Positions 8,603 to 47,391 of a stretch of 64,000 nt of DNA are shown here, piece by piece. The stretch is from Dehalococcoidia bacterium (GTDB lineage: Bacteria > Chloroflexota > Dehalococcoidia > Lucifugimonadales > UBA3495). Made by a program: the position numbers and the translations under genes. The notes below the pieces were generated by a model. It was not told the DNA's origin, made no database searches, and worked only from the letters and a program-made list of their open reading frames with translations. The stretch spans positions 2,588,095 through 2,652,094 of the forward strand of contig OZ244064.1 in NCBI GenBank assembly GCA_965215425.1, given 5' to 3'. The first letter of the stretch is position 1. Each line of letters opens with the position of its first letter.

Positions 8603-8688
8603 GGTCTTTCTTCCAGCAGTGCGGAGCATCTCATCGACTACGCGCGGGGGAGATCTGGTATGGATCTTTCTCCCAGCAGTGCGGAGCA
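8603..8688. repeat. Repeat-spacer-repeat unit: 26-nt direct repeat (GGTCTTTCTTCCAGCAGTGCGGAGCA / GGATCTTTCTCCCAGCAGTGCGGAGCA-like) separated by 34 nt, period 60
   Basis: The copies lie at 8603..8628 and 8663..8688 and match at 24 of 26 positions. The intervening 34 nt are unrelated to the sequence after the second copy. Confidence 0.8.
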
Positions 8689-8798
8689 ACACCGGGGCAG
8701 ATAGAGTGCTACGAGTCTCCGTGGTGCAAGAAGGTCTGTCGCCAATGCCGATTTACGATACGATTAGCCCGACGACAATCCTGGGGGGAGGGGGGCCC

Positions 8799-9623
8799 GG
8801 GCAATCGCGTCTTAACTGCGAAGGACTTTCAGCAAGTGGGCATCCCGCCCGCTGGCTTGCCGGCGTTTGCCCCGGATGCCCACTTTCAGGCTGGTTTCCC
8901 GTTTCAGCAGGTTGGGGGAAATTTGCCGCAGCGTCGCCAGGTTCTGGGGCGCGTGAGCCTTGCGAATCCGGCATTGGTCTTCCCGGAAGGTCCCGTCCAG
9001 GCTTCGGTGCAAAGAGTTCTCGCTGCTCCGGTGGGTGCGTACTGCCGCCAGCAACTGCTCTGCCGGCGCGGTCAGACTGCTGATGCAGCACCTGGATTGC
9101 ACGGTTGACCCCTCCGCCGTCTCCCGATGGCCCACCACTTTGACCACCGCCGTCCAAATCCAGCAGTCCGCCCGCTTATTTCCCCGCCGCGCCCCCCGGC
9201 AAGTCCATTGCTCAGCACAGGCGATCACCGCCGCCGGTTGCCCTCCCGCCATAGCAGCCGGGCGCTGCCGGGCCTGCTCCCGCAGCCGCTCTAACGCTTG
9301 TCGCCCCCCTTTTTGACCCAGTTGCTGACCGTTTGCACCCTAACTCCCACCACCCGGCTGACCGCGCTCAGGCTGCTGCCCTCCCCATACATTTGCAGCG
9401 CTTGCTCCGTGACCGCCGGCCCCGCTGGGCTGATAGCGCCGGCCGCAATCCCCGCAGCGGTAGCGTTGCTGGCCCCGGTTATAGCCGTGCCTGGCCATCC
9501 AATTGGAACCGCAGTCGGGACAACGCACATCGTGGCAGTAAACTCGGGGACGGCGCAGCATCACACCTCCGACAACAGGCCTGCCTCAATCATAACTCTA
9601 TCCCAACTTATGTTGAAAAGACC
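8799..9623 (-). mobile_element. Chimeric IS remnant: the 3' part of an ISAs1-family element fused to the 5' part of an IS1-family element
   Basis: The left end carries the same terminal repeat GGGCAATCGCGTCTTAA as the 23007 copy. ORF 8812..9252 reads ...QWTCRGARRGNKRADCWIWTAVV (IS1 InsB N-terminus) joined directly to KVVGHRETAEG...ENSLHRSLDGTFREDQCRIRK...LLKVLRS (ISAs1 transposase C-terminus). ORFs 9340..9564 and 9291..9530 give a frameshifted InsA-like zinc finger (CPDCGSNW...RYRCGDCGRRY) plus HTH. The right end ...TGTTGAAAAGACC resembles the IS1-like end at 24497. Confidence 0.7.
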
Positions 9624-9815
9624 CCACCGTATAAACGGGGTCTTTCGATTCTCTCTCGGTTCTCAGCCCGGGGCCTGAACGACGCTCCCGGTCTTTCACC
9701 AGTAGGCCACGGGCTTCTTATCCCGCCAGGGACAGGGAGAAGGAAGGGTTCTACCGGATCGAGCTGGAGCAGTCGCTTAAGGGCGCCGGTTCAGCCTGAA
9801 TCAGCAAAGGCGGAA

Positions 9816-11030
9816 TCAGCAAAAGTTTTGCGTAAAATATACTCTACCGCCCGGGGATACGGCCACTCCAATCCCCTCCCTGCCGTAACTCCGGTTCAGG
9901 ATGTTGGCCCGGTGGCCGGGACTGCCCATCCAGCCCCGCACCGCCATAGCGGCCAGTTCCGCAGCGGAGCGCCAGTCCTTAATCGTAGTAGCTCCGCTGT
10001 AAGTGGTGTAAGTATAAGTAATGGAACCGTATAGCCAGCCCTGATAAATGTTCTCGGCCAGGCCATAGGTGTAGTACCGGCCATAATCTTTACGGCAAGT
10101 ATAGCCCTGCCGCACGCCTCGGTCAGTAGGGCTTTCCCCAACGGGATTCACGTGGGAAAAGTAGCCATACGCCGCCATATCATCGCTGTGAGCTTCAGCA
10201 ATGCCGGCAAGGTCGGCGTCATATACCAACGCCGCCAACCCCCGCCGCTCCCTTTCCGCGTTAACCAGTTCGTGAACCAGCCGGGCCAATTCCTGGAGCG
10301 GAATAACCGCAGCGCCGGTATCCGCCCGGTTAGCTATAGCCGGGGCCGAGACTATAGCCGGGGCCGAGACCGGGGTCGGGGCCGGTGGGGGAGGGACCAG
10401 TGGAGGAATGGGTACAGCGGCAAGTTCCGCCGGGGGAGTAGCCGGATCGGGTATTGCCGTGGGAACAATCGCCTCCGGCAGCTTGCCCGTAAGGATGAAA
10501 ACGTCAAACTGCTCTTTAGTGAGCGAAACTTCTACGCCGGTTGCTGGATGCTTTACCAGGTAGGAAAACCGGGCGGGCGGAATCAGAGTCGAAACAGGCG
10601 CCGGAGCAGGAGCCGGTGGAGCTGTGGGGGACAACACCGGCGCAGTTGGCGAAACAGCGGTAGCGGGTAGCCGGGTTGGAGTTGGCGTGATGGCGACAGA
10701 CGGGAGCCGGTCGGCGCCGGGGCGTCCGGTAATTTCCCCGGCCGGTTGCGCCGGTGAAGCCGGCCGGGGCGGGATTGGCGCGTTGGTGGAGGTTTCCGCC
10801 GGCTTCGGAGAAACCGGTTGGGGAGATTCACGGTTGGCCCGGTCGCGAAATACCGAGGCCAAATCAGCAATGAGGGCGGGGATGGCCTGCCATTGCTTAA
10901 GGGAAATTTCCCAGGCCCGCTGCGCCTCAAAGCGATTAGTCTCCCGGTAGTCCAGCCAGATGCCCCAACCGGCCCAGAGGAGAAGGGTCAGGGCGATCCC
11001 GATTAATGTTTTACGCAAGAACTCGCCCAT
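9816..11030 (-). CDS. Membrane-anchored CAP/SCP (YkwD-like) domain protein with a Pro/Ala-rich linker
   Basis: The C-terminal region NAERERRGLAALVYDADLAGIAEAHSDDMAAYGYFSH...GWMGSPGHRANIL matches the CAP-domain pattern. The N-terminal TM is LIGIALTLLLWAGWGIW. I prefer the ATG at 11030 (MGEFLRK...) to the ORF-track start at 11168. Confidence 0.8.
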   Translation of the reverse strand: MGEFLRKTLIGIALTLLLWAGWGIWLDYRETNRFEAQRAWEISLKQWQAIPALIADLASVFRDRANRESPQPVSPKPAETSTNAPIPPRPASPAQPAGEITGRPGADRLPSVAITPTPTRLPATAVSPTAPVLSPTAPPAPAPAPVSTLIPPARFSYLVKHPATGVEVSLTKEQFDVFILTGKLPEAIVPTAIPDPATPPAELAAVPIPPLVPPPPAPTPVSAPAIVSAPAIANRADTGAAVIPLQELARLVHELVNAERERRGLAALVYDADLAGIAEAHSDDMAAYGYFSHVNPVGESPTDRGVRQGYTCRKDYGRYYTYGLAENIYQGWLYGSITYTYTTYSGATTIKDWRSAAELAAMAVRGWMGSPGHRANILNRSYGREGIGVAVSPGGRVYFTQNFC

Positions 11031-11380
11031 TTTACCGCCACACCGCGCTGACTGGGCCGGTGGAGGAGTAACATTCTGACTTTGCTGCGCCGGGTTCGCC
11101 GGCCGGGGTGTAACGTCCCGTCCCCGCCAGACTTTCCGCCCCGGCCGGTATCCGCTCCGCTGGGCCAAGCCGGAAACACAGCGCCGCCGGGGGTGTTCGC
11201 CGCGCCCGTAATCCCGGTCATCCAGCGGCCTAAACTATCTGCTTACCCCAGCCGGATATGACTACGGACTGGACGGCGAAGTCGTAACTGGAGAGGGGCA
11301 TAGCTACCACCTGAAGGCGTCTGCATCACTATTTAGAATGGTAGCGCAATGCTACTGTCGGTTATCGGTCAATGGTGAAC

Positions 11381-12649
11381 TTACTCCACAAAAATAGAAT
11401 AGTTGGTAACCGCCACCCGTTCCCCACCGGCTTTGGCCCAAATCTGCACCGTATATACCCCGGGGCCGGCGGCTTCCAGGATGGGGGCAAGGTCTGCCGT
11501 TACCCGGAAGGACGAACCGGCGGCCTCCCAAACGGCGGCAGTGGTCCAGGGGACGGCGCGGGTATGGATAACATCCACCCGCAGGGGCGGCGCGTTAATG
11601 CGGTCCAGTCCCGGGTCCAGGGTGTAGGGGTCTATTCCCGTTTTCCAGGCGTAATTGGACACGTTATCCGCGTAGTAGCGGTCAGCCTCCAGGGGAGGGC
11701 GCAGGAAGACAGCCGGGTACTGGCCGGCGCCGTAGGAGTAAGTGGCGTCAAGCTGGCCCAGGGTCAACGGGCGGGGCGGCGGGTGATACCAGACGGCTAC
11801 GCTGTCCAACCCCATTCCCGGGGCCAGTTCACCGGCAAAGTTAAGCCTTCTCCCGGCAATGGCGGGTAGGGCGCTGAACCGTATGTGGTCGCCCTCAAAC
11901 TGCTGCACCACCCAACAGGTAAGGGCATTGCAGGCGATGCCCAGGTTAACCTTGCGGTGCCACGGGTCGAGGATGTTGGCGCGCTGCTCCGGGCTGACCA
12001 TAAAGGCCTCCTGAGTTCGGACCATCAACTTGCCGGGCGACTCGCTCCGGCCTCCGACCCCGCCGGTCAGCACGTCCGGGCCGGAAATGTTCTGTAGTTC
12101 CCGGTTAAACCCGCCGGCCAGGGTATAGCGCATATAGGGAGCCAGGCCGTTGGCGCCCCAGTGGGAGCGGTAATTGCGCCGCATCATATCCTCGGCGTGG
12201 CCCTGGGCGGCCGGGTTGTCGCCCAGGGTTAGCGGGACCAGGCCGAAATGCGCCCGGTCGGCGTTTATCAGCCCCAGCATCAGCCGTTGCAACAACCGGA
12301 GTTCTTCCGGGGCAACCGGGGACGGAGGGGAAACGGTTGGCCGGGCGACCGCTGGGGGAGGCTCTACGGCCCTGCCATTAGCGGTCAGGGCGGCCACAAC
12401 CAGGGTATCGGAGGTATCGGACGTCGGGGCGGGGGTAGTCAGCGTGGCGGGAGGCGTTGGGGCGTCGGACTGGAACGGCCCGACAATCAATTCCGGTATC
12501 TCAGCGAACCGTCCCCCGGCAGAGCCGAAGGCTCGTCCGGCTTTGAGGTCTCCGTACCGTTGATAGTCCTGCCACAGGATAATCCCGATTATGCTCAGTA
12601 AGGCCAGGGCGGACAGGGTGATAAGCCCGGCGACTGTTTTCTGATACAT
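11381..12649 (-). CDS. Membrane-anchored CAP/SCP domain protein (paralog-like neighbour)
   Basis: The N-terminal TM is GLITLSALALLSIIGIILW. The CAP motifs are LINADRAHFGLVPLTLGDNPAAQGHAEDMMRRNYRSHW and FMVSPEQRANILDPWHRKVNLG. Confidence 0.8.
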   Translation of the reverse strand: MYQKTVAGLITLSALALLSIIGIILWQDYQRYGDLKAGRAFGSAGGRFAEIPELIVGPFQSDAPTPPATLTTPAPTSDTSDTLVVAALTANGRAVEPPPAVARPTVSPPSPVAPEELRLLQRLMLGLINADRAHFGLVPLTLGDNPAAQGHAEDMMRRNYRSHWGANGLAPYMRYTLAGGFNRELQNISGPDVLTGGVGGRSESPGKLMVRTQEAFMVSPEQRANILDPWHRKVNLGIACNALTCWVVQQFEGDHIRFSALPAIAGRRLNFAGELAPGMGLDSVAVWYHPPPRPLTLGQLDATYSYGAGQYPAVFLRPPLEADRYYADNVSNYAWKTGIDPYTLDPGLDRINAPPLRVDVIHTRAVPWTTAAVWEAAGSSFRVTADLAPILEAAGPGVYTVQIWAKAGGERVAVTNYSIFVE

Positions 12650-12949
12650 TGGTAGTTCATCGGGGTTGCGCGAAATGGGGTTTATTTTGCGGGAACCGCC
12701 GCTCCGCCGGGGATTTGCCGGCGGCTCATTCGTGTCGCCAATGACAACGCCCCGGCCTCCGGCAGCTCGAAGACGGCTCGCTCGCTAGATTCCCGGTGGC
12801 CGCATTATAGCACGCCGGCTTCCGGCAGAAATTCCGAAAAATCGGTTCCGTTTACAATTATTGTTTACCCCGTATAAGACGCAACAACCGCACGCTAAAA
12901 GTAAAGTAAACGGAACCCGAAAATCCGAAAGGCGTCGCCGGCCCATATC

Positions 12950-15249: not shown

Positions 15250-16023
15250 ATGACTACAAAACTCGCCTATCAAATCCGCTCCGTCATCAACTACGACCAG
15301 CTTTCCTTCAATCCCGACGTGCCGGAGCCACTGCCCGACGCTATGTATCAATACCCGGTCCTGCAAGAAGTTCTCCACGTCCTGGATACCCACCTGTCCA
15401 GCCTTTACCCCGCAGAAGAGGTCTTTCGCAGCAGCAACACCTTCATCTGCTACGACCCAGCGGACCTGAACCTCCGGGTTGGGCCGGATTTCTACGCAGC
15501 TTTCGGCGTTGACGCCCCAGCCATTGAGCGCCGGAAGCTGTACCTGCCCTGGGAGGTCGGCAAACCGCCCGACTTCGCCCTGGAAGTCGGTTCGGAGAGT
15601 ACCCGGCGTCAGGACAGCACGGTCAAACGCCAGCTTTACGCCCAGATCGGCATCTCCGAATACTGGCGATTTGACCGCACCGGGGGCGATTTCTACGGGC
15701 TGCCACTGGCTGGCGACCAACTGCAAAGCGGCGTTTACCAACCGGTGGCGCTGACCTCCGAACCCGACGGCGTCCTCAAGGGATACAGCCCAGCGTTACG
15801 GCTGAGCTTGTGCTGGCGGAACGGGATGCTCAAGTTCTACCACCACGAGTCCGGTCAATACCTCCGCAACCTGGGGGAGGCGGAGACCGACCGGCAAAGG
15901 GCGGAAGCTGGCTGGCAAAGGGCGGAGGCGGACCGGCAAAGAGAACGCGCCGCCCGGCAACGCGCGGAAGCTCGCCTCCGCGAGTTGGAGGCGGAAATGC
16001 GCCGGCGCCCGGGCGAAAACTGA
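15250..16023 (+). CDS. Uma2-family (DUF820) PD-(D/E)xK-like endonuclease with an Arg/Glu/Ala-rich repeat tail
   Basis: PDFYAAFGV...GKPPDFALEVGSESTRRQDSTVKRQLYAQIGISEYWRFD is the Uma2 core pattern. The C-terminal tail is DRQRAEAGWQRAEADRQRERAARQRAEARLRELEAE. Confidence 0.85.
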   Translation: MTTKLAYQIRSVINYDQLSFNPDVPEPLPDAMYQYPVLQEVLHVLDTHLSSLYPAEEVFRSSNTFICYDPADLNLRVGPDFYAAFGVDAPAIERRKLYLPWEVGKPPDFALEVGSESTRRQDSTVKRQLYAQIGISEYWRFDRTGGDFYGLPLAGDQLQSGVYQPVALTSEPDGVLKGYSPALRLSLCWRNGMLKFYHHESGQYLRNLGEAETDRQRAEAGWQRAEADRQRERAARQRAEARLRELEAEMRRRPGEN

Positions 16024-16100: not shown

Positions 16101-16748
16101 TCACCCCGGCGGGTTCAACTCCAGCAGCTTCCCAAACACCTTCTGCGTTTGCACCACATCGCCGCCGGCACGATGGGGACGGATGCGGGCGGTAGATATG
16201 CCGAAGTCGGCGCAGGCCGTTGACAAGCTGTAGCGCATCCCGGGAACCCGCGCATCCAGCACTCGCTGGACATAGTCCCGGTGGCTTTCTCCCGGTTCCG
16301 GGTAACGTCCCAGTTTGTACCCCCGATACAGGGCCATGGCGTCGATAAAACGCCCCGCCGGCAGGTCATCCACCTCATCTATCACCCGGGCCAGTAGTCG
16401 TCCCTCCGCCACTGCCCGGCGATGCACCCGGGCAGCCTCCAGCAGAAAGGCCCGGTCAAAGCGGAGGATATTGTAGCCCACCAGGGGCCGGCCGCCGGTT
16501 CGCTCCACGAACCAGGCCAAAGCCGCGTCAATGGAAATCCCCCGCGCCGCCAAATCCAGATCGGTGATTCCCGTCAGGCTAACGATCCGGCGAGGGAGAG
16601 GCCGGTCTATTTTCACCAACACCGAGTCCGTGGCCGGCTCTTGTCCCGGCAGAACCAGGGAAACGCCGATCTCAATGATCAGGTCGTTCCAGCAGTCCAG
16701 ACCGGTAGTTTCCAAGTCCACTACCGCATAGCCATCTTGCAAATTCAT
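16101..16748 (-). CDS. DEDD-type 3'-5' exonuclease (DnaQ/PolIII epsilon-like)
   Basis: YAVVDLETTGLD is the ExoI motif. An H-x4-D ExoIII-like motif (RPHRAGGDVVQT) lies near the C-terminus. Confidence 0.85.
   Translation of the reverse strand: MNLQDGYAVVDLETTGLDCWNDLIIEIGVSLVLPGQEPATDSVLVKIDRPLPRRIVSLTGITDLDLAARGISIDAALAWFVERTGGRPLVGYNILRFDRAFLLEAARVHRRAVAEGRLLARVIDEVDDLPAGRFIDAMALYRGYKLGRYPEPGESHRDYVQRVLDARVPGMRYSLSTACADFGISTARIRPHRAGGDVVQTQKVFGKLLELNPPG
16106..16145. repeat. Right copy of the direct repeat (native 3' end of the exonuclease gene)
   Basis: See 15121..15160. This copy encodes ...QKVFGKLLELNPPG-stop. Confidence 0.85.
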
Positions 16749-16797
16749 CGTAGGAAACCGCCTTGTGAAGTTCAGAATTTAGGGGATAGTTTACCGC

Positions 16798-16829: not shown

Positions 16830-17002
16830 CCGGTTATACCGGATTGAGAAGGAGAAAATATCCGGTGCAACTGGTTTATCCAGGGCTAAATCCCTCAGGC
16901 CGGCACGGCAGACCGGCACGGGTTAGAAACCGCTGGGCGGGTATGGTACAATGGCCCGGTCAAGTCCCGATTCCCCAAACACCGCAGCAGAGAGGGTTGG
17001 CT

Positions 17003-19285
17003 ATGTCCAATATCGTACTGTCAAATACGGAATACCAGGTGGTCGGCACCCGGCCCATTCGTCACGATGGCACGGACAAGGTAACCGGCCGCGCCAAGTA
17101 CGGCGGCGATTTCCAGATGACCGGACTGCTCCATGGCCAGGTGTTGCGCAGTCCCCACGCCCACGCCCGCATCAAGTCCATTGACACCAGCAAAGCCAAA
17201 GCCTACCCCGGCGTCAAGGCGGTGATAACCGGCCGGGACCTGCCCGTCGCTGGTATGGAAACTCCCGGGCGGGGAATGCGCTTCTCCAGTGAGAACATTC
17301 TGGCCCAGGACAAGGTCCTGTATCGGGGGCACGCCGTGGCCGCCGTGGCCGCCACCAACCTCCATATCGCCGAAATCGCCGTGGGGCTGATTGAAGTGGA
17401 GTACGAAGTTTTGCCTCCGGTAATCAGCGTTACCCAGGCGATGCAAGCGGACGCTCCCCTGGTCATCGAGGATATGACCACCACCGACTTGGGGGAACGG
17501 ACCGACACCCACAGCAACATTGCTACCCATTTCAAGTACGAACTAGGCGACCTGGAACAGGGATTTGCCGAAGCCGACGTGGTGGTGGAGCGGGAGTTCC
17601 GGACCGCTACCGTGCACCAGGGCTACATCGAGCCGCAGAACGCTGCGGCCCTGTGGAACGCCGACGACAAGTTGACCGTCTGGACCAGCACCCAAGGGGC
17701 TTTCAGCGCCCGGGATTCCCTGGCCCAGATTCTGGACCTGCCGGTCTCCCAGATTAAAGTGGTGCCGATGGAAATCGGCGGCGGCTTTGGCGGCAAGATT
17801 CCTGTTTACCTGGAGCCGATGGCCGCTATCCTGTCCCGAAAGACGGGGCAGCCGGTGAAACTGTTGATGTCCCGTACCGACGTATTCGAAAGCACCGGCC
17901 CCACTTCAGGCGCCACGATGCGGGTGAAAGTGGGGGCTACCAGGGACGGCAAGATTACGGCGGCGGATGCTACCCTGGCCATGGAGGCTGGAGCCTTCCC
18001 CGGCTCTCCTGTGACCATGGGCGCCCAGTGTATGTTCGCTCCCTATGACATTGAAAATGTCCGGGCCGAGGGTTATGACGTGCTGGTGAACAAACCCAAG
18101 GTCGCCCCCTACCGGGCGCCGGGAGCGCCCATTGCCGCCTTTGGCGGCGAGCAGGTAATGGACGAGGTCGCTCGCGAACTGGGCCTCGACCCGGTGGAGT
18201 TCCGCCTCCGCAACGCCTCCAGGGAAGGCACCCGACGGGTGGACGGCCCGGAGTTCCCGGTCATCGGCAACATTGAGTGCGTGGAAGCGGCCAAGGCTAC
18301 CGAGCACTACAATACTCCGCTGACCGGCCCCAACCGGGGCCGGGGCATCGCCTCCGGTTTCTGGTTCAACATCGGGATGCAGTCCAGTTGCAGTATTGGC
18401 GTCCAGTCCGACGGCACCATCAGCCTGGTCGAGGGTTCCACCGACATCGGCGGCACCCGGGCCTCCATTGCCATGCAAGCCGCCGAGGTGCTGGGCATTC
18501 CCGCGGCGGACGTGCGCCCCAGCGTGGCCGATACCGACTCGGTGGGCTATACCTTCCTGACCGGCGGCAGTCGCACCACCTTTGCCAGCGGTTGGGCCGC
18601 CTACGAGTGCGCCCAGGACATCAAACAGCAGCTGATTGACCGGGCCGCTACCATCTGGGAGGTGTCGGCAGCGGATGTGGAACTGGCCGGCGGGGTGTTC
18701 CAGCACAAGTCCGACTCGGACCTGAAAATGACCTTCAAGGAACTGGCGGCCCAGCTCAACGGCAGTGGCGGCCCCATCTCCAGCCAGGTCAGCGTTGACC
18801 CCCGGGGCGCCGGCGGCGCCTTCTCCACCCATATCGTGGACGTGGAAGTTGACCCGGACACCGGCAAGGTGGACATCCTTCGTTACACCACCGTCCAGGA
18901 CGCCGGCAAGGCGATTCATCCCAGCTACGTGGAGGGCCAGATGCAGGGCGGCGTGGTGCAGGGCATCGGCTGGGCCCTGAATGAAGAATACTACTTCAAC
19001 GAGGCCGGCCAGATGGTTAACTCCAGCTTTCTGGACTACCGGATGCCCATCAGCCTGGACCTGCCGATGATTGACACGGTGATTGTAGAGGTAGCCAATC
19101 CGGGCCATCCTTACGGAGCCAGGGGCGTGGGCGAAGTGCCGATAGTGCCGCCCATGGCCGCCATCGCCAACGCCATCCACGACGCCATCGGGGTACGGAT
19201 GGAACGCCTGCCGATGAGCCCCGGCGCTATTCTGGAAGCCCTGTGGTCGCAGAACGGTCAGCCAGAACAGCCGGCGGCAGACTAG
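17003..19285 (+). CDS. Xanthine dehydrogenase / aldehyde oxidase / CO-dehydrogenase-family molybdopterin-binding subunit
   Basis: GTRPIRHDGTDKVTGRAKYGGD, LRSPHAHARIKSID, HQGYIEPQ, GGGFGGK and the C-terminal GVGEVPIVPPMAAIANAI are hallmarks of this family's large subunit. The ATG at 17003 has a GAGGG RBS, and the upstream extension in the track is unlikely. Confidence 0.9.
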   Translation: MSNIVLSNTEYQVVGTRPIRHDGTDKVTGRAKYGGDFQMTGLLHGQVLRSPHAHARIKSIDTSKAKAYPGVKAVITGRDLPVAGMETPGRGMRFSSENILAQDKVLYRGHAVAAVAATNLHIAEIAVGLIEVEYEVLPPVISVTQAMQADAPLVIEDMTTTDLGERTDTHSNIATHFKYELGDLEQGFAEADVVVEREFRTATVHQGYIEPQNAAALWNADDKLTVWTSTQGAFSARDSLAQILDLPVSQIKVVPMEIGGGFGGKIPVYLEPMAAILSRKTGQPVKLLMSRTDVFESTGPTSGATMRVKVGATRDGKITAADATLAMEAGAFPGSPVTMGAQCMFAPYDIENVRAEGYDVLVNKPKVAPYRAPGAPIAAFGGEQVMDEVARELGLDPVEFRLRNASREGTRRVDGPEFPVIGNIECVEAAKATEHYNTPLTGPNRGRGIASGFWFNIGMQSSCSIGVQSDGTISLVEGSTDIGGTRASIAMQAAEVLGIPAADVRPSVADTDSVGYTFLTGGSRTTFASGWAAYECAQDIKQQLIDRAATIWEVSAADVELAGGVFQHKSDSDLKMTFKELAAQLNGSGGPISSQVSVDPRGAGGAFSTHIVDVEVDPDTGKVDILRYTTVQDAGKAIHPSYVEGQMQGGVVQGIGWALNEEYYFNEAGQMVNSSFLDYRMPISLDLPMIDTVIVEVANPGHPYGARGVGEVPIVPPMAAIANAIHDAIGVRMERLPMSPGAILEALWSQNGQPEQPAAD

Positions 19286-20392: not shown

Positions 20393-20428
20393 GCCCGCTC
20401 CCGGAAACATCGGGGCGGGCAGTTTTTT
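20393..20428 (+). terminator. Intrinsic terminator after the CMD-family gene
   Basis: GCCCGCTCC (20393..20401) pairs with GGGGCGGGC (20412..20420), including one G-U pair. A TTTTTT run follows at 20423..20428. Confidence 0.65.
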
Positions 20429-20431
20429 CAG

Positions 20432-20529
20432 GGCCAGACACAGGCGACTATCGGGTGAGCTGGCTATCGGGCGGTGGGGCAGGCCCGGGCTACCGGCATA
20501 GGCCAGGCACAGGCAGCTATCGGGTGAGC
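20432..20529. repeat. 29-nt direct repeat GGCCAG(A/G)CACAGGC(GA/AG)CTATCGGGTGAGC x2 (period 69), within an array of five (C/T)(T/C)ATCGGG(T/C/A)G motifs
   Basis: The copies lie at 20432..20460 and 20501..20529 and match at 26 of 29 positions. Further ATCGGG cores occur near 20464, 20577 and 20629. Confidence 0.8.
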
Positions 20530-20795
20530 ATTACCTTTGGTTTCAGATTCTCATCCCTCCTGCCGGGCCAGGGCGATTATCGGGTGGGCGCTCAGGTCTA
20601 GCCCACCGGCGGGGCGGGCGGTTGATGGTCATCGGGAGGGCGCTTGTCCAACCCACACCGCTACCGGTCGGTTAGCTCCAACGGAGGCGTCGGGGCCTGG
20701 ATTTTCACTCCCCTCTATATGCCGGTATATAGCCGGCGCGCCGGGTTAGTTACCCCGTACATCCTGTCCCGATTGTTCCGACCCGGGAGCCGGAA

Positions 20796-29504: not shown

Positions 29505-29597
29505 CTTGGGGCGAGATCATAGTGCGACCGCCGGGGTTAGGCCGTATGCGGCAGACCTGCCGCACGGGCCGCCGGAAATCATATTCGGCCGCCGGGG

Positions 29598-30647
29598 TTA
29601 GGGCTTGAACAGGGCAACGCATTTGTTAGAGTTGAAGATGTAAGTTTCCACGTAGTCAACAATCTCCGGCTTGTGGCCCAGTTCCTGCATTGCTCCGGCA
29701 ATGCACATCCAGTTAAGCAGTTCCTGCTGCCCGGCGTCCTCAATCTGCTCGGTGGAAATCCGGCTCCACGCCGCATAATCTCCGTCGCGCAACTCCTCGA
29801 ACCGAGCCCGATCCGAAGGCACGTCCGGGTAGAGGAAGTGATTCTTTTCGGCCAGGAAGGCGTGGGACCAACTGGAAGAGCCGACCAATGCCACCCGCCA
29901 GGGGCTTTCCTTTAAGACCCGGGCCACGGCCGCGCCCACTTCCATGCACCGCTTGGGCGATGGGCCGGGCGGGTCAAGTTCCGCTTCGTACTGAATGGAG
30001 CCGCCCCGGTTGCGTACTACCTTGCTGCCGTAGCAGTTCACCAGGAAGGGAACCACCGGATAGTCAAACCCCTTCCGGTCATAATCCAGGTAGAGTAGGG
30101 TATTGAGGATGGCATGGCCCAGCCCGCCCTTTTCGTGCAGGGGCTTGTAGGCGTAGGACATATCAATCCCTTGCTCCAGCAGCCCCCGAACCAGACTGCG
30201 GGCCGCCGGCCGGTTGCCGGCGTACTTGAAGATCTTGTCCGCCGGCTCACCCCAGACGTTGCTGCGGGCGCTGCCGTCGCGGGCAGTGAAGGGCTGGCAC
30301 TCCATCTCGTCGTAGGCCAGGACGCAGAAAGGCGGGATGATGTCTTCCTTGAAGTTCTCGTACTGGTCGTCGCCCCAGATCAGGACAAAGTCCGGCTGGA
30401 AGGCGTCAATCTCTTCGCGCAGTTTGCGAAACCCGTTTACCAGCCGCTCGCGGGCCTTCCGGGCCGAGGCCAAGCCTTCATCCTCGCCGTACTCGATACG
30501 CATCGGCTCGGGCCAGTTGGTGGGGAGCCTCAACTCCGCGGGCAGCTTGTCGCTGCGCAGGCTGCGCGTTATGGAGAAGTCCATTTCCTCGTCGGGTTTG
30601 ATTAGCGATGGGGAATGAGTCAGACCAACACCAATCATTTCTGCCAT
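29598..30647 (-). CDS. Class III (LigB-type) extradiol ring-cleavage dioxygenase family protein
   Basis: MAEMIGVGLTHSPSL, FVLIWGDDQYENF and LVGSSSWSHAF fit the LigB-family pattern. The ATG at 30647 is preceded by a GGGAGG RBS, and the upstream 74 codons in the track are unlikely. Confidence 0.75.
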   Translation of the reverse strand: MAEMIGVGLTHSPSLIKPDEEMDFSITRSLRSDKLPAELRLPTNWPEPMRIEYGEDEGLASARKARERLVNGFRKLREEIDAFQPDFVLIWGDDQYENFKEDIIPPFCVLAYDEMECQPFTARDGSARSNVWGEPADKIFKYAGNRPAARSLVRGLLEQGIDMSYAYKPLHEKGGLGHAILNTLLYLDYDRKGFDYPVVPFLVNCYGSKVVRNRGGSIQYEAELDPPGPSPKRCMEVGAAVARVLKESPWRVALVGSSSWSHAFLAEKNHFLYPDVPSDRARFEELRDGDYAAWSRISTEQIEDAGQQELLNWMCIAGAMQELGHKPEIVDYVETYIFNSNKCVALFKP

Positions 30648-30905: not shown

Positions 30906-32582
30906 ATGCCAAGGATGACCGGCGCCCGATTTTTGGTAGAAACAATGCAAGCCTATGGTGTAACGCACGCCTTTTATATGCCGATGATCGTTACCCGAGC
31001 CCTGGTGGAGATGGAACGGGTGGGCATTGGCCGCATTATGGCCCACAGCGAGAAGGCCGCCGCCTACATGGCCGACGGCTATGCCCGCGCCGCCGGCCGA
31101 CCTTCGGTGTGTATGGCCCAGAACGTGGGAGCGGCCAACTTGGCCGCCGGGTTGCAGGACCCCTTCCTGGGCGGGTCTCCGGTAGTTGCCCTGACCGGCC
31201 GGGGCGCGCCCATGCAGCAGTACCGCAACTACTACCAGGAAGTTGACCACGTGCAGCCCTTCAACGCGGTTACCAAGTTTAACGCCCTGGTGGACAGCGT
31301 CGAGCAGTTGCCCGGCCTGCTGCGGCAAGCCTTTCGGGAGGCTACGTCCGGCGCTCCCGGGCCGGTTCATCTGGACCTGCAAGGTTCTTCGGGTAATGTT
31401 ATCATTGACGCCGAAGCCGACCTGGAGGTGATTGCAGAGGCCCCCTTTACCCATGTACCGCCCTTCCGCGGCGAGCCGGAAACGGAAATGGTGCGGTCTG
31501 CGGCCCGGGCCTTGTCCGCGGCGCGACGGCCGGTAATCGTCGCCGGCGGCGGAATCGTTTCCTCCCAGGCCCAGCGGGAGTTGGTGGAGCTGGCCGAGAT
31601 GCTGTCCATTCCGGTAGCCACATCCCTTAACGCCAAGGGCGCCATCCCCGACGACCATCCCCTCGCAGTGGGCGTCTGCGGCACCTATTCCCGCTGGTGC
31701 GCCAACCGGGTGGTAGCCGAGGCCGACCTGGTTTTCTTCGCCGGCAGTCACACCGGTAGCCAGGTAACCACCGAGTGGCAGATTCCCCGCCCTGGCACCC
31801 CGGTTATCCAGTTGGACATAGACCCGAAAGAACTGGGCCGCAGCTATCCGATCCAGGTAGGATTGCAGGGCGATGCCCGGGCTTCCCTGCGCAAGTTGAT
31901 CGAACATCTTGAACCCCTGGGGCCGCGGGGCGAGTGGGTAGGTCGGGCGCAAGAGTTGGTGCGGGAGTGGCGGGCGGAAGTGGCGCCCCTGGCTAACTCC
32001 GACGCGGCGCCGATGCGCCCGGAGCGTCTCTGCAAGGAAATCACCGACTACTTGCCGGACGACGCCGTATTGCTCTCCGATACCGGCCACTCCGGTATCT
32101 GGACCGGGACTATGGTGGACCTGAACCACCCGGACCAACGCTATCTCCGCTGCGCCGGTTCCCTGGGCTGGGCCTTTCCGGCGGCCCTGGGCGCCAAGTG
32201 CGCCGTTCCCGACCGCCCGGTGGTCTGTTTCACCGGCGACGGCGGTTTCTGGTATCACCTGAGCGAGGTGGAAACGGCAGTGCGTTACGGTATCAACACG
32301 GTTACTGTGGTAAACAACAACCACTCCCTGAACCAGGAAAAGCGGGGCAACGAGCGGGCTTACGACAGCGTCGGGGTTACCGGCAACGTGGACGAGTTGT
32401 GGGTGTTTCCCGATACCAACTTCGCCAGGCTGGCCGAGGACATGGGCGGCTTTGGCATTCGGGTGGAGCGTCCCGAGGACTTGCGGGGCGCCCTGGAACA
32501 AGCCGCCGCCGCCGGCAAGCCGGCGGTAGTTGACGTGGTTACTGACATTGAGGGAATCGCCCCTCGCGCCTGGGTAGGTTAG
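30906..32582 (+). CDS. Thiamine-pyrophosphate-dependent enzyme (acetolactate-synthase-like superfamily, function unassigned)
   Basis: It has the three-domain TPP architecture, with the TPP-binding motif GDGGFWYHLSEVETAVRYGINTVTVVNNN. Confidence 0.85.
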   Translation: MPRMTGARFLVETMQAYGVTHAFYMPMIVTRALVEMERVGIGRIMAHSEKAAAYMADGYARAAGRPSVCMAQNVGAANLAAGLQDPFLGGSPVVALTGRGAPMQQYRNYYQEVDHVQPFNAVTKFNALVDSVEQLPGLLRQAFREATSGAPGPVHLDLQGSSGNVIIDAEADLEVIAEAPFTHVPPFRGEPETEMVRSAARALSAARRPVIVAGGGIVSSQAQRELVELAEMLSIPVATSLNAKGAIPDDHPLAVGVCGTYSRWCANRVVAEADLVFFAGSHTGSQVTTEWQIPRPGTPVIQLDIDPKELGRSYPIQVGLQGDARASLRKLIEHLEPLGPRGEWVGRAQELVREWRAEVAPLANSDAAPMRPERLCKEITDYLPDDAVLLSDTGHSGIWTGTMVDLNHPDQRYLRCAGSLGWAFPAALGAKCAVPDRPVVCFTGDGGFWYHLSEVETAVRYGINTVTVVNNNHSLNQEKRGNERAYDSVGVTGNVDELWVFPDTNFARLAEDMGGFGIRVERPEDLRGALEQAAAAGKPAVVDVVTDIEGIAPRAWVG

Positions 32583-32643
32583 TCGGATTTTCTGTACAGT
32601 CGGAGGGTAAAATGGAATCGCCCCTCGCGCCTGGGCAGGTTAG
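32553..32643. repeat. Repeat-spacer-repeat unit: 30-nt direct repeat GGAATCGCCCCTCGCGCCTGGG(T/C)AGGTTAG separated by 31 nt, period 61. The first copy is the last 30 nt of the TPP-enzyme gene, including its stop codon.
   Basis: The copies lie at 32553..32582 and 32614..32643 and match at 29 of 30 positions. The spacer TCGGATTTTCTGTACAGTCGGAGGGTAAAAT is noticeably AT-richer than its surroundings. Confidence 0.85.
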
Positions 32644-34136: not shown

Positions 34137-34281
34137 CCCGTCGCTTCCGGCGGTTCGGCCAGCGTCAAGGGTACGACGAATGTTGCGGACGGATGTTGAC
34201 CGCCGCCTCCCTTCCTCCCGCATATGGGACGGGTATAGCGTCGAGAGTATGAATGTTGCGGACGAGTGTTGAGGGCTGCTG

Positions 34282-40277: not shown

Positions 40278-40811
40278 CTAAAAGAGCTTCTCCACGGCCA
40301 GGGTGATAGAAACAGCCAACCCGGCGGTGGCAATGATGGTTCCAATCATCCACCGGATAGTGTTGGTTTGCGCCCGTTCAATGGCGACCAGCAGTTCAGC
40401 CCGCAGCCTTTCCCGATCGGCCTGCATATCGCCACGCAGCTTTTCCATATCGCCACGCAGCCTTTCCATATCGCCGCGCAACCTTTCCATATCGGCCTGC
40501 ATATCGCCGCGCAGCTTTCCCATATCGGCCTGCATGTCGCCGCGCAGCCTTTCCATATCGCCGCGCAGCTTTCCCATATCGGCCTGCATATCGCCGCGCA
40601 GCTTTCCCATATCGGCTTGCATATCGCCGCGCAGCTTTCCCATATCGGCTTGCATATCGCCGCGCAGCCTTTCTATATCGCCACGCAGCCTTTCCATGTT
40701 GGTCTGCATGTCGCCGCGCAACTTTTCCAGGTCGTCCTTAGTCGCCAAGTGATTTTGCAGCTCTTCCAGGGCAGCGACTCGTTCTTGTATTGGGACGGCT
40801 TCGGTAGTCAT
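40278..40811 (-). CDS. DUF1640-like coiled-coil protein with 11 LRGD-containing 7/11-residue repeats and a C-terminal TM anchor
   Basis: LATKDDLEKLRGDMQTNMERLRGDIERLRGDMQADMGKLRGDMQADMGKL... is followed by RWMIGTIIATAGLAVSITLAV. A GAGGA RBS precedes the ATG. The DNA repeats (21- and 33-nt units) span about 40421..40727. Confidence 0.65.
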   Translation of the reverse strand: MTTEAVPIQERVAALEELQNHLATKDDLEKLRGDMQTNMERLRGDIERLRGDMQADMGKLRGDMQADMGKLRGDMQADMGKLRGDMERLRGDMQADMGKLRGDMQADMERLRGDMERLRGDMEKLRGDMQADRERLRAELLVAIERAQTNTIRWMIGTIIATAGLAVSITLAVEKLF

Positions 40812-42703: not shown

Positions 42704-43714
42704 ATGCCGAAAATAGCCATTGTAGGCACGGGCCTGATGGGTACTTCGCTGGGGCTAGCCCTGCGCCGCTCTCCGTTGCTGAACTTGGAACTGGTCGGCA
42801 CCGATGCCGACGGCGGCGCCCGTAGCGGCGCCCAGCGCAGCAATGCCTTCCACCGGGTGGAAAACCGGTTGCTGGATGCGGTGGCCGGCGCCGACATAGT
42901 TGTCCTGGCTACGCCGATTATGGCGATGCGGGAGCTTTTTGAGGTCATTGCGCCCCATTTGCCCGAAGGCTGCGTCGTCACCGACGTGGGCAGTTCCAAG
43001 AAGGTAGTGCTGGCCTGGGCCGACGAATACTTGCCCGGCACCGTGGATTTTGTCGGCGGGCACCCGATGGCCGGCAAAGAGACTGCCGGGCCAGAAAATG
43101 CCGACGCCAATCTGTTCCTTGGCAAGACCTACTGCATTATTCCCAGCGTCAGGGCCAGCGAGCGGGGCGTGGCCGAAATCACCACTATGGTCGAGGCTAT
43201 TGAAGCAGTTCCCTTCTATATTGGCACCGAGGAACACGACAGCTTTGTGGCCGCGGCCAGTCACCTGCCCTTCCTGCTTTCCGTGGCCCTGGTGGGTTGC
43301 ACTTCCGGCAGCGCTAACTGGGATGACATTGCCCGGGTCGCCTCCAGCGGCTACCACGACTTGACTCGCCTGGCTTCCGGGGACTCAGTAATGCACCGGG
43401 ACATCTGCGTCTCAAACCCGGAGCCGATTGTTGTCTGGATTGATGCCTTTATCCGGGAACTCTATGCGGTGCGCCAACTTCTGGCTGACGGGGAGAACCT
43501 GGATTCCGCCGCGGTGCTGGACTTGTTCGTCCGGGCCAGGGAGTCCCGGGCCAAATGGCTGGCTGGAGATTATGGCCCCCGTTCCCGCCAATATAATCCG
43601 CACCAGGAGTTGCCGACTTTTGCCGAGAGCATGGGCGATATGTTCGTTGGGCGCAAGCTCCTGGACGCCCAGCGGCGGCTCTTTCGCGGTTCCCGGGACG
43701 GAGACCGACGCTAG
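42704..43714 (+). CDS. tyrA: Prephenate/arogenate dehydrogenase
   Basis: The Rossmann motif is IAIVGTGLMGTSLGLAL, and ...FVGGHPMAGKE... is the PDH signature. Confidence 0.88.
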   Translation: MPKIAIVGTGLMGTSLGLALRRSPLLNLELVGTDADGGARSGAQRSNAFHRVENRLLDAVAGADIVVLATPIMAMRELFEVIAPHLPEGCVVTDVGSSKKVVLAWADEYLPGTVDFVGGHPMAGKETAGPENADANLFLGKTYCIIPSVRASERGVAEITTMVEAIEAVPFYIGTEEHDSFVAAASHLPFLLSVALVGCTSGSANWDDIARVASSGYHDLTRLASGDSVMHRDICVSNPEPIVVWIDAFIRELYAVRQLLADGENLDSAAVLDLFVRARESRAKWLAGDYGPRSRQYNPHQELPTFAESMGDMFVGRKLLDAQRRLFRGSRDGDRR

Positions 43715-43776
43715 GCCCGGGCCGAGAGCTAAAGGTGCAGCCATTGGGTCAGCGATTGGGAGGGGAGCTACCGGAA

Positions 43777-44376
43777 ATGGCCCCGGCAACCCCGCTATTG
43801 GTGGTGATTAGCGGGCCTTCCGGCGTGGGCAAGGATGCCGCCCTGGTCGAACTGAAGAAGTTGAGCCCCCCCTGGCATTTTGTGGTTACCGCCACTACCC
43901 GCCCGCCGCGCCCGGGCGAGCAGGACGGGGTGGACTACCTTTTCCTGGATGCCGACACTTTCCATAAAATGCGGGAACGGGACCAGTTTCTGGAATGTGC
44001 CGAGGTTTATGGTCGGTGGTACGGCGTGCCCCGCAGCCAGGTGCGGGAAGGTTTCAATGCCGGCAAGGATGTCGTCCTGAAAATAGACGTGCAGGGAGCG
44101 GAAACAGTGCGGCAACTGGCCCCGGAAGCCCTCTTTATCTTTCTGGTTCCCGGCTCCTTTGAAGAACTGGCCCGCCGTCTGGGTCGGCGAAAGACGGAAA
44201 CACCGGAGGAAGCGGACCTGCGCCTCCAAGTTGCCAGGGAGGAGTTGTCCCAGGTCAGTCGCTACGACTACCGGGTGATTAACCGGGATGGTTGTCTCCA
44301 ACGGGCGGTCGCAGAAATCGAGGCTATCATCGTAGCAGAGAAGTGCCGCGTGATTCCCCGGGTGGTCCAGTTTTAG
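43777..44376 (+). CDS. gmk: Guanylate kinase
   Basis: The P-loop is VISGPSGVGKDA, with TTRPPRPGEQDGVDYLF and ...EVYGRWYG.... The ATG at 43777 has a GGGAGGGGAG RBS. Confidence 0.9.
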   Translation: MAPATPLLVVISGPSGVGKDAALVELKKLSPPWHFVVTATTRPPRPGEQDGVDYLFLDADTFHKMRERDQFLECAEVYGRWYGVPRSQVREGFNAGKDVVLKIDVQGAETVRQLAPEALFIFLVPGSFEELARRLGRRKTETPEEADLRLQVAREELSQVSRYDYRVINRDGCLQRAVAEIEAIIVAEKCRVIPRVVQF

Positions 44377-44483
44377 ATAGCCTGGCGGATACTTCCAAGC
44401 CAGAGCGCAATAAAATAGCCGGTGTGAATGGAAATGGCAACGGCGCATCTATATCTATCGCATCTATAAGGAACGGAGATTTG

Positions 44484-45377
44484 ATGACCGACCGGAAGCG
44501 TAACGCCAACATCCGGCCCAGGCTGCCCGACTGGCTCAAGGTAACCATGCCGGGTAGCCCGCGTTATCTGGAACTAAAGCAGTTAATGCGGGGTCAGCAG
44601 TTGCACACGGTTTGCGAGGAGGCGCATTGTCCTAATATCGGCGAGTGCTGGGGAAGGGGCGCCGCTACTTTTATGATTCTGGGGGAAATCTGCACCCGCC
44701 GCTGCCACTACTGCGCGGTAACCACCGGCCGGCCGCAGGGACTGGATTTGCAGGAACCGGCCCGACTGGCCGAAACGGTTAAATGGATGGGACTGCGCTA
44801 TTGCGTCATTACCTCGGTTAACCGGGATGACCTGGTTGACGGGGGCGCTTTTATCTTTGCCGCTTGCATCAACCGGATTCGCGCCGAATCACCGGAGTGC
44901 AAAATCGAGACGCTAATACCCGACTTTGCCGGTTCCAGGGAGGCGTTGGCCCGAGTGATGGCGGCCGGGCCGGACGTGCTGAACCACAACATCGAATCTA
45001 CCCGGCGCATTTTCCCCCGAGTAAGGCCCCGGGGCGATTACCGGCGTTCCCTGGAGTTGTTAGCCCAAGCCAAGGAACTGGTTCCCGGCGCCGTCACCAA
45101 GTCCGGCATCATCGTCGGTATGGGAGAAACTGCGGCGGAAGTGGTTGAGACCATGCGGGACTTGCGGGAAGTGGGCTGCGATTTGCTGACCATCGGCCAA
45201 TACCTGCGGCCTTCGGCCAAACACCTTGCCATTGACCGCTTTTATCATCCGACGGAATTCGCCGACCTGGGCCGCATCGGACGGGAGCTGGGTTTCAAGC
45301 ATGTGGCCGCTGGCCCGTTGGTGCGCAGCTCCTACCATGCCGACGAGCAGCACGATGCCGCGATTCAGTCCGCCTGA
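44484..45377 (+). CDS. lipA: Lipoyl synthase
   Basis: CEEAHCPNIGECW and the radical-SAM motif CTRRCHYCAV are both present. The ATG is at 44484 (MTDRKRNANIRPRLPDWLKV). Confidence 0.92.
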   Translation: MTDRKRNANIRPRLPDWLKVTMPGSPRYLELKQLMRGQQLHTVCEEAHCPNIGECWGRGAATFMILGEICTRRCHYCAVTTGRPQGLDLQEPARLAETVKWMGLRYCVITSVNRDDLVDGGAFIFAACINRIRAESPECKIETLIPDFAGSREALARVMAAGPDVLNHNIESTRRIFPRVRPRGDYRRSLELLAQAKELVPGAVTKSGIIVGMGETAAEVVETMRDLREVGCDLLTIGQYLRPSAKHLAIDRFYHPTEFADLGRIGRELGFKHVAAGPLVRSSYHADEQHDAAIQSA

Positions 45378-45616
45378 TCCCCGCAGGCCGGTCGCTGACC
45401 GCTGCGAAAGCGGGAATCCAGGGCGTCCTGGCGCAGGTTCCGTTTGATTTTAGTGTTTCTTTGCGCATAGTTGCGCATATATTTTATATATATGTATATG
45501 TGCGCTGCCCCAGCGGGGTTAAACCCTGAAAGTGAACGGTATCCCGGCGTATAACAATTTTGCAGAGCAAGGTCATTTAGATTCCGGTTTTTCCGAATGA
45601 CCGACAAAAAGCCGAA

Positions 45617-47248
45617 ATGTCCGCTTACGCCGACTTGATCCTCGCCAACGCCCACGTCATCACCCTGGACCCGGCGCTACCCCTGGCCGAGGCGGTGGCC
45701 GTTTCGGGAGCTGAAATCCTGGCGGTGGGTCGCGATCGGGACATCGCCGATTGGCGCAAACCCCGCACCCAGGTTATAGACTGTCGGGGGCTGACCCTGA
45801 TTCCCGGCATCATTGACGCGCATTGCCATCTGCTGGCGTCGGCCTCGGCCCTGACCGGACTGGATTGCCGGCCGGCCGGCGGCGTTGTCTCGCTGGCCGG
45901 CCTGACCGGACGGCAGGGAATCATTGCCCGCCGGGCCGGAGAAACCCCGCCGGGCGGGTGGATTCGCGGCTTTGGCCTGGACCCGGCAGCTTTGGCGGAG
46001 GGCCGTTACCCCACCCGACAGGAATTGGACGACGCCGCCCCGGGGCATCCGGTACGGCTGGAACACGCCAGCGGCCACGCCGCCGTGTTGAACAGCCGGG
46101 GGTTGGAACTGGCCGGCATTGACGCCGCTACCGCCGACCCGCCGGAGGGTATCATCCACCGGGATGGAGCTACCGGAGAGCCGGACGGCCTGTTGCTGGA
46201 ACTGTCCGGCTGGTTGCGCGCCAGGCTCGGCAACACCCGCTCGGACGAAGAGCTTGCGGAGGGTGTGGCGCAGCTGAACCGCCGCCTGCTCCGCTATGGC
46301 ATTACCTCGACGCACGATGCCGGGCCCAACAACTCTCCCGACGCCTGGCAGACCTTTCAATCGCTGGTACAATCCGGCCAATTTCTCCCCCGGGTGCTGC
46401 TGATGGCCGGAGCCGGGCGGCTGTCCGACTTTGCGGCGGCCGGCTTGAGCTGGGGCAGCGGCGATGACCGGCTGCGGCTGGGCCACGCCAAGATAATGCT
46501 CACTCTGACTACCGGCGCAATGCAGCCGGCCCCGGATGAGTTGGGGGAATTGGTAGCGGACGCCCGTCGTCGCGGCTTTCCGGTGGCCGTCCACGCCATT
46601 GAGCAGGAGGCGATAGCCGCCGTCGCCGGGCTGATGGGGCTTGCCCGCCCCTTTCCGGTAGCGGAGGTCGCGGTCAAGGGTATTCCTTCCGGCAAGTCGC
46701 CGCCCCGCCCCCGGAACCGCATTGAGCATTGTGCCGAATGTCCGCCGGAACTGCTGGCGCAACTGCGACGCTGTGGCGCAATGGTGGTTACCCAGCCCGG
46801 GTTTATCTACCAGCGGGGCGACGGCTACCTGGAGCGGGTCGAGGCGGAACTGTTGCCCCACCTGTATCCCGTCGCTGCGCTGGCCCGGGCCGGGCTGCCT
46901 ATGGCCTTTGGCTCCGATGCGCCGGTTATCGACCCCTCGCCCTGGCCGGCCATCTACGGCGCCGTTACCCGTCGCACCGCCGCCGGACAAACTTTGCCGC
47001 CGGGAGCAATGGACGGCGCCGGGCTGCACCTGGAGTTCGAGGACGCTCTGCGGATTTACACCCGGGGCGGAGCTATAGCTGAAGGCGCCGAGTCGCGTAA
47101 GGGCGCCGTCCGCCCCGGAATGCTGGCCGACCTGGTCTTGATCGATCCCGGCCCGGCCGGGGCGGAAACCGAGGAAATAAAGGATACGAAGGTGCGGCTG
47201 ACCATAGTGGGCGGGCAGGTAGTTTGGGATGACGGAATCCGGGCTTAG
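45617..47248 (+). CDS. Amidohydrolase-3 (YtcJ-like) family metal-dependent hydrolase
   Basis: ILANAHVITLD...GLTLIPGIIDAHCHL is the HxH motif in the family's N-terminal context, and GSDAPV lies near the C-terminus. Confidence 0.85.
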   Translation: MSAYADLILANAHVITLDPALPLAEAVAVSGAEILAVGRDRDIADWRKPRTQVIDCRGLTLIPGIIDAHCHLLASASALTGLDCRPAGGVVSLAGLTGRQGIIARRAGETPPGGWIRGFGLDPAALAEGRYPTRQELDDAAPGHPVRLEHASGHAAVLNSRGLELAGIDAATADPPEGIIHRDGATGEPDGLLLELSGWLRARLGNTRSDEELAEGVAQLNRRLLRYGITSTHDAGPNNSPDAWQTFQSLVQSGQFLPRVLLMAGAGRLSDFAAAGLSWGSGDDRLRLGHAKIMLTLTTGAMQPAPDELGELVADARRRGFPVAVHAIEQEAIAAVAGLMGLARPFPVAEVAVKGIPSGKSPPRPRNRIEHCAECPPELLAQLRRCGAMVVTQPGFIYQRGDGYLERVEAELLPHLYPVAALARAGLPMAFGSDAPVIDPSPWPAIYGAVTRRTAAGQTLPPGAMDGAGLHLEFEDALRIYTRGGAIAEGAESRKGAVRPGMLADLVLIDPGPAGAETEEIKDTKVRLTIVGGQVVWDDGIRA

Positions 47249-47299
47249 ATCGCTGAAAAGGCCGGGCAATAGTGGTCGGGGAATGGCAAAGGAGCTTCC

Positions 47300-47391
47300 G
47301 GGTTTGTTTGCAAGGCGCTTGGAGCGACCCTACTACCACCGAGACCACGATAACCTGGGAGGGTCTGTTTGCAAGGCGCCTGGATCGACCC
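47300..47391. repeat. Repeat-spacer-repeat unit: 31-nt direct repeat GGGT(T/C)TGTTTGCAAGGCGC(T/C)TGGA(G/T)CGACCC separated by 30 nt, period 61
   Basis: The copies lie at 47300..47330 and 47361..47391 and match at 28 of 31 positions. The flanking and intervening sequences are unrelated. Confidence 0.85.

Follow-up and report, generated by a model that had tools for sequence, protein, structure and literature searches.

Solitary repeat-spacer-repeat units with a 61-bp period in an uncultured SAR202-type Dehalococcoidia: insertions with target duplication that may record off-target CRISPR spacer integration

CRISPR arrays of type I-E in Escherichia coli gain 61 bp with each spacer acquisition (PMC4081107). 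Off-target integration by Cas1-Cas2 in the same organism makes solitary units and new arrays, and the evidence for it in nature was called circumstantial, in two species (Nivala 2018 via 10.1101/148544, PMC7054753). Cas1-Cas2 of Pyrococcus furiosus carried out full-site integration at non-CRISPR sites in vitro, with nicks one repeat-length apart and with G favoured at the attacked base (PMC6698737). Here we describe a 64-kb stretch of DNA (the window) from an uncultured Dehalococcoidia of the SAR202 type, in which six intergenic loci each carry a repeat-spacer-repeat unit. The start-to-start period is 61 bp at four of them, 60 bp at one, and 69 and 60 bp at one three-copy locus, and the repeats are unrelated from locus to locus. 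Conspecific DNA adds about 20 kb, for a total of 84 kb, and four more loci. The units are insertions with target duplication that follow a fixed ruler of 28 + 33 nt, are specific to this lineage and turn over between strains.

Each E. coli neo-CRISPR unit is likewise solitary, lies at a non-CRISPR site, has as its repeat a duplicated local target, spans 61 bp and can grow to several copies; there, however, the units were rare and required overexpressed Cas1-Cas2, whereas those described here are natural, fixed and polymorphic, occur about once per 8 kb and have not so far been linked to cas genes. The geometry is also that of type I-E array expansion, with a staggered cut across a repeat of about 28–29 bp, a spacer of 32–33 bp and 61 bp per event (PMC4081107). 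In contrast to type I-E arrays, the units have no common repeat, no recognisable leader, no adjacent cas gene and no constant base after the repeat; with a repeat of its own at each locus, only 2–3 copies of it and no match to the Rfam CRISPR-DR families, they are not bona fide CRISPR arrays. The off-target sites of P. furiosus (PMC6698737) were likewise non-CRISPR sites, and G or GG opens half of our targets, but the P. furiosus sites detectably resembled the native repeat, while a test for a motif shared among our targets was not significant. Virus-borne mini-CRISPR arrays (PMC6858448) have 1–2 spacers in 2–3 repeats and lie apart from cas genes, as the units do. Unlike in those arrays, the repeat here is particular to each locus and is a copy of housekeeping intergenic DNA or of the end of a gene. 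The repeats of the virus-borne arrays reportedly match the host CRISPR system, and the arrays are said to be located in mobile elements. Target-site duplications of transposons and casposons are a further parallel, in that the target is directly duplicated around inserted DNA. The known duplications of that kind measure 2–15 bp and flank inserts with defined ends, in contrast to the duplication of about 28 bp and the inserts of about 33 bp without shared ends seen here.

The thiamine pyrophosphate (TPP) enzyme encoded in the window assigns it to the SAR202 kind of uncultured Dehalococcoidia, and a protein search recovered a TPP enzyme 99% identical to it from conspecific DNA. The conspecific contigs used here come from a metagenome-assembled genome (GCA_964347845.1) and from two ENA assemblies (ERZ21848999 and ERZ21849000), and are ~97–98% (about 97.5%) identical to the window at the DNA level. 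The closest species representative, the sister species L001, has 96% protein identity and ~87% DNA identity in genes, with intergenic regions that cannot be aligned. A search of JGI metagenomes for closer relatives found none, the best match having 88% amino acid identity.

Comparison of these strains at locus C resolves a unit to the nucleotide. Here R1, the first copy of the repeat, consists of the last 9 codons of the TPP-enzyme gene (30906–32582), and the spacer supplies the AG of its TAG stop codon. Three conspecific contigs (L161–L163) have both 28-nt repeats and both flanks in essentially identical form (~100%), but their 33-nt spacer is unrelated: AGTCGGATTTTCTGTACAGTCGGAGGGTAAAAT in the window against GACTGCCGTCGGACTCCACCGGATACTGGGTGA in L161–L163, with 6 of 33 positions matching. 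The comparison fixes the unit as a 28-nt repeat (GGAATCGCCCCTCGCGCCTGGGTAGGTT) with a 33-nt insert, where a longest-match parse (32553/32614) reads a 30-nt repeat with 1 mismatch and a 31-nt spacer. The target, the gene end, is present as a single copy in L001, in L164 and in more distant relatives, and the intergenic length after the second copy (R2) is 89 nt in the window vs ~88 nt in L001 with its single target. Both alternative spacers complete the stop codon of the gene, as T+AG in the window (TAG, 32578–32583) and as T+GA in L161 (TGA, 11673–11678), which suggests that selection acts on which insertions survive. Derivation of the L161 spacer from the ancestral downstream flank was considered and rejected, as no signal emerged when it was aligned locally to the flanks of L001 and L164, with shuffles for comparison.

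At locus A the conspecific contig L172 has one target copy, no spacer and ~60 bp less than the window. Related strains had been proposed as the place to look for unduplicated target sites, and these exist both for locus A, in L172, and for locus C, in the sister species. Loci B, D, E and F are common to the strains, with the same spacers and point changes only: the spacers of unit D are the same in L170 and L171, that of unit B is the same in L165–L167, and unit E in L161–L163 has an identical spacer and one substitution in R1. Two of the six window loci therefore differ between strains at 97.5% identity. Repeat-to-repeat identity across the units ranges from 100% down to 71%, and this span, together with the two loci that differ, indicates a process continuing over time. 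Three units, namely D and two in L170 (12253 and 18856), are mini-arrays of three copies, and in D and at L170 18856 the most degenerate copy is terminal (in D, R3 at 72%). The duplication measures 26–31 nt at the ten loci and exactly 28 nt wherever strain comparison or a three-copy array fixes its boundaries, and the insert is 33 nt in the cleanly bounded cases.

The shared period is far in excess of expectation. At a score of at least 12, sequences simulated from a first-order Markov model of the window contain ~0.01 pairs per distance, and the real window at this threshold has 4 pairs at a distance (d) of 61 plus 2 at d = 60; a coding repeat accounts for one of the latter two. Five of the ~13 short-range pairs in the window (distance 12 to 400, with four coding tandem arrays left out) lie at 60–61, for which a binomial estimate is about 5e-9, and with the same arrays set aside the strongest short-range pairs are nearly all at this distance. 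The 84 kb of species DNA yield 9 pairs with d = 61, 3 with d = 60, of which one sits in a coding tandem repeat, and a single pair with d = 59. Most of the remaining distances from 40 to 99 have 0–1 pairs, and the few higher counts fall at multiples of 3, to which coding tandem arrays contribute. The Markov simulation and the distance distribution together rule out a chance origin of the units. The same scan of other Dehalococcoidia (1.54 Mb from 80 related genomes, extended with 80 metagenome loci to 160 loci and 2.26 Mb) returned only 2 pairs at d = 61. Period 61 is thus not enriched in these relatives, which rules it out as a property of the whole clade and makes the units specific to the lineage of the window. 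The original prediction had proposed a test of the 60–61 period against Markov controls, and the enrichment is borne out strongly within the species and not in its relatives. One of the two d = 61 pairs in the relatives is a 26-nt pair (L122, 9868–9893) in a distant relative with a TPP enzyme of 67% amino acid identity. At ~10 loci in 84 kb, or ~1 locus per 8 kb, a genome of 3.3 Mb would by extrapolation hold a few hundred units.

Table 1. Coordinates of the repeat-spacer-repeat units in the window and in conspecific contigs (R1–R3, successive repeat copies; periods in bp).
Unit	DNA	R1	Spacer 1	R2	Spacer 2	R3	Repeat	Period	Remarks
A	window	8603–8628	8629–8662 (34 nt)	8663–8688			26 nt	60	
D	window	20432–20460	20461–20500 (40 nt)	20501–20529	20530–20560 (31 nt)	20561–20589	29 nt	69 and 60	three copies
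E	window	29513–29541	29542–29573 (32 nt)	29574–29602			29 nt	61	
C	window	32553–32580	32581–32613 (33 nt, 39% GC)	32614–32641			28 nt	61	
B	window	47300–47330	47331–47360	47361–47391			31 nt at 90% identity	61	
F	window	60223–60249	60250–60283 (34 nt)	60284–60310			27 nt at 81% identity	61	
12253–12402	L170								exact 28+33+28+33+28 unit
18856–19006	L170						31 nt	61 and 59	two identical copies and a degenerate third
1159	L168								older pair
5743	L168								older pair

All units in the window lie between genes, apart from R1 of unit C and R2 of unit E, which overlap gene ends (Table 1). Unit A sits upstream of mfd (called gene 4850–8419, minus strand), and unit D begins directly after a hairpin and T-run at ~20393–20430. 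Unit E is placed between convergent genes, and its R2 overlaps a LigB-like gene at the stop codon (29598–29600, minus strand); its core pair at 29525/29586 is 17 nt long and, with mismatches, extends to 29 nt from 29513. Unit B lies between convergent amidohydrolase and polyprenyl synthetase genes, with a spacer of 30 nt by the longest-repeat parse and of 33 nt if the repeat is 28. Unit F, also between convergent genes, has an R1 that forms with upstream sequence a stem of ~21 bp (60166–60245; CGGAGACCTTGAGGCGCAGAG ... CTCTGCGCCTCAAGGTCTCCG), and a partial, reversed copy of its R2 lies further upstream, making this locus a tangle of direct and inverted repeats. The five pairs listed in the original prediction are all present where it placed them, while the third copy of unit D (20561, period 60) and the sixth locus (60223/60284) had been missed. 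Its statement that all clear spacers begin with T is an artefact of longest-repeat parsing, as the true locus C spacers begin with AG and GA once strain comparison sets the boundary 2 nt earlier, and 5 of the 10 targets fit its statement that all repeats begin with GG. Repeat ends of the GGAGC-like kind that it pointed out do occur in several targets, although no shared motif reached significance in the overall test.

We propose that the units are products of off-target Cas1-Cas2 spacer integration, that is, neo-CRISPR units with type I-E geometry, and put the probability of this reading at roughly 0.6. The integrase would cut a target with a stagger of ~28 bp and join a prespacer of ~33 bp between the cuts, and gap repair would then copy the 28-bp target onto both sides to give a repeat-spacer-repeat unit of period 61, in which the 'repeat' would be any local sequence that happened to be struck. 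A second strike on an existing unit would make a three-copy mini-array, recombination between the repeats of a unit could lose or swap its spacer, and selection may spare only those insertions that fall in intergenic DNA or at the extreme ends of genes. To our knowledge no other enzyme makes a 28-bp duplication around a 33-bp insert. We take off-target adaptation as the likeliest mechanism because this 28+33 ruler is a signature known to us only for Cas1-Cas2, with precedents in E. coli and P. furiosus and with CRISPR-Cas on record in sponge-associated SAR202 genomes (PMC6306507). We infer Cas1-Cas2 as the enzyme and a type I-E-like system in the genome, now or once. The ectopic spacer acquisition put forward in the original prediction is accordingly upheld as to the insertion, with its 28-nt duplication and 33-nt insert, but the assignment to Cas1-Cas2 is an interpretation of that geometry. 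A more far-reaching version, in which an adaptation-type integrase remains active after seeding non-CRISPR intergenic DNA with several hundred solitary spacers, and in which either the spacers are functional or the enzyme is non-canonical, seems to us possible but doubtful.

Several results weigh against off-target Cas1-Cas2 integration. PADLOC detected no cas1 or cas2 among the window's 113 open reading frames (ORFs), which agrees with the earlier remark that it holds no cas genes, and the ~90 kb of annotated conspecific flanks have no cas gene; the species DNA examined for cas amounts to ~150 kb, or ~5% of the genome, and no search aimed at the Cas1 protein was made. Possible sources of the spacers did not emerge either: three young spacers had zero exact 23–24-mer matches in IMG/VR, and searches with the spacers against GenBank phages and against 2.5 Mb of sequence collected for this analysis gave chance-level matches only, so that no virus or plasmid was matched beyond chance. 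With strand flipping allowed, the ten targets have no significant shared motif (36 of 150 controls as good); the units match no Rfam CRISPR-DR family; and no constant base derived from a protospacer-adjacent motif follows the repeat. One interval measures 69 bp, and a density of ~1 locus per 8 kb far exceeds any reported off-target integration. Finally, the five units shared between strains (window units B, D, E and F counted against L165, L170, L161 and L168) differ by 1.8% in their spacers (3/167), by 6.1% in their repeats (16/261) and by 7.2% in their flanks (43/600), and this apparently greater conservation of spacers (Fisher p about 0.01, from 3 vs 59 substitutions and post hoc) is not what simple neutral fossils would predict.

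Some further results of these searches belong beside them. Without strand flipping, the information content of the motif shared by the ten targets is 10.9 vs 9.6 ± 0.7 in controls, with 6 of 150 controls as good (marginal), and by eye several targets loosely resemble type I-E repeats. One spacer has a 15–16-nt match to the TPP gene of several relatives, which was rejected as a single coincidence counted repeatedly. Weak Cas3-like PADLOC matches in the window are most likely to the helicase domain of Mfd. With E = 5e-24, one ORF of the window is matched by the PADLOC model for CRISPR-associated DEDDh exonucleases; this is most likely the RNase T-like ORF at 16101–16748 (minus strand), whose counterpart in L170 has an RNase_T Pfam domain. 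DEDDh-family exonucleases trim prespacers in some type I-E systems, but a solitary gene like this one most probably serves housekeeping.

If the units were small functional arrays retained for their spacers, as crRNA-like (CRISPR RNA-like) or other regulatory RNAs, the low spacer divergence would be accounted for, and the stop codon preserved by both locus C spacers would fit as well. Against this, the repeats drift at the rate of the flanks, which indicates that they are not themselves under selection, and closely related strains differ by the gain, loss and swapping of units; folding is unremarkable, and the signal for spacer conservation is the small post hoc one given above. The repeat is moreover distinct at every locus, so that no single processing enzyme could recognise all units, and we consider functional arrays quite improbable. 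Structured RNA as such was rejected, with folding z-scores from −1.9 to +1.9 and no Rfam match at the units. Somewhat less improbable, although still unlikely in our view, is the same ruler-type event, a ~28-bp duplication with a 33-bp insert, made by a non-canonical enzyme, either a stand-alone Cas1-like integrase or an undescribed system. The cas-free ~150 kb of the species, the dissimilarity of the targets to one another and to Rfam CRISPR repeats, the extreme density and the protospacers that were not found all favour such an enzyme, but the units agree exactly with the 61 bp of type I-E, and we know of no other enzyme with the 28/33 geometry. Casposases, for example, make duplications of ~14–15 bp. 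The absence of cas genes from ~5% of a genome also says little.

Explanations that dispense with a ruler altogether fare worse. Replication slippage is the usual source of short-range direct repeats, and unit D does contain a short internal duplication (CTATCGGG, present twice), but ~61-bp tandem duplications of which one half later diverged should leave spacers that still resemble their surroundings. The spacers instead show no similarity to what precedes R1 or follows R2, including in units with repeats 96–100% identical, and the locus C spacer has been replaced wholesale between identical flanks, which excludes tandem duplication followed by drift; nor is there a reason why slippage should favour 61 bp at each of ten unrelated sites in just one species. 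We regard it as extremely improbable, and the ordinary tandem duplication that the original prediction named as one refuting outcome was not borne out. Paired protein-binding sites, duplicated terminators, remnants of mobile elements (miniature inverted-repeat transposable elements or insertion sequences (IS)) and assembly artefacts are, taken together, hardly more credible. It is true that several units occupy regions that resemble terminators and are flanked by convergent genes, that a long hairpin overlaps unit F and that an IS copy lies ~100 bp from unit A. However, the repeats are unrelated between loci and, at 26–31 nt, exceed the length of a typical operator; neither common ends nor inverted repeats occur among the fourteen inserts, and the duplication is ~28 bp rather than short. 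The IS near unit A accounts for synteny breaks, not for the 60-bp insertion there, and assembly artefacts are excluded because the units recur, with sequence differences, both in the source assembly and in separately assembled conspecific contigs.

Other repeats and elements were recorded in the same DNA. A decayed IS from 23005 to ~25098, found in the window strain only, has a transposase (DDE_Tnp_1 and DDE_Tnp_1_assoc) split over three ORFs, and a partial copy of it lies at 8797–9149 (353 bp, 97% identical); both copies coincide with breaks in collinearity with the conspecific contigs. We considered whether the units mark the boundaries of genomic islands and rejected this, as the synteny breaks beside units A and G are explained by these decayed DDE-transposase insertions in the window strain. 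An intergenic pair at 34161–34272 has a 36–39-nt repeat (AGCGTC...GAATGTTGCGGACG.ATGTTGA), a 37-nt unique spacer and a period of 73–76, and is conserved in L161; it could be the footprint of a second ruler, or be unrelated. At 40359–40739, a small gene with weak coiled-coil Pfam matches contains a long tandem array of coding sequence in which periods of 21 and 33 nt are mixed (CATATCGCCGCGCAGC.TTTCC units), and the strain alignments break inside this array. Upstream of an operon resembling ilvB-ilvN-ilvC-leuA is a T-box leader (50393–50662, plus strand; Rfam, 100.7 bits), and in the conspecific contigs a 36-amino-acid ORF is called between ilvC and leuA. Two paralogous genes for molybdopterin-dependent dehydrogenases (16844–19285 and 57809–60157) share ~66% DNA identity over 2.2 kb.

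Among the relatives, a contig with a TPP enzyme of 78% amino acid identity (L091, WNFD01081529.1) carries a true CRISPR array directly after the TPP gene (2029–2740), with at least 10 repeats and a period of 70–72, so that the clade does have arrays, of a different type. The sister species L001 has intergenic tandem repeats at 8136–8311 and 15253–15438, with periods of 122–124 nt and 96–97 nt, and no period-61 units. Several close relatives labelled as RHO1, RHO2 and RHO3 bins are taken to be sponge-derived, and CRISPR-Cas has been reported in sponge-associated SAR202 genomes (PMC6306507).

We regard the units as a known kind of event in a new form, one that is natural, abundant, dispersed and still turning over. 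Off-target spacer integration in E. coli has so far been demonstrated only when Cas1-Cas2 was overexpressed (Nivala 2018 via 10.1101/148544, PMC7054753). Should the genome of this species lack Cas1-Cas2, the data would indicate an as yet unknown system of integration whose ruler is 28/33 bp. If the units are Cas1-Cas2 products, they would amount to a dated record from nature of the CRISPR integrase as a mutagen and as a creator of new arrays, in which a few hundred target sites would be available for reading the real specificity of the enzyme. They would also provide direct material on the origin of new CRISPR repeats, and would show that the genome pays a measurable price for adaptation, insertions into gene ends included.

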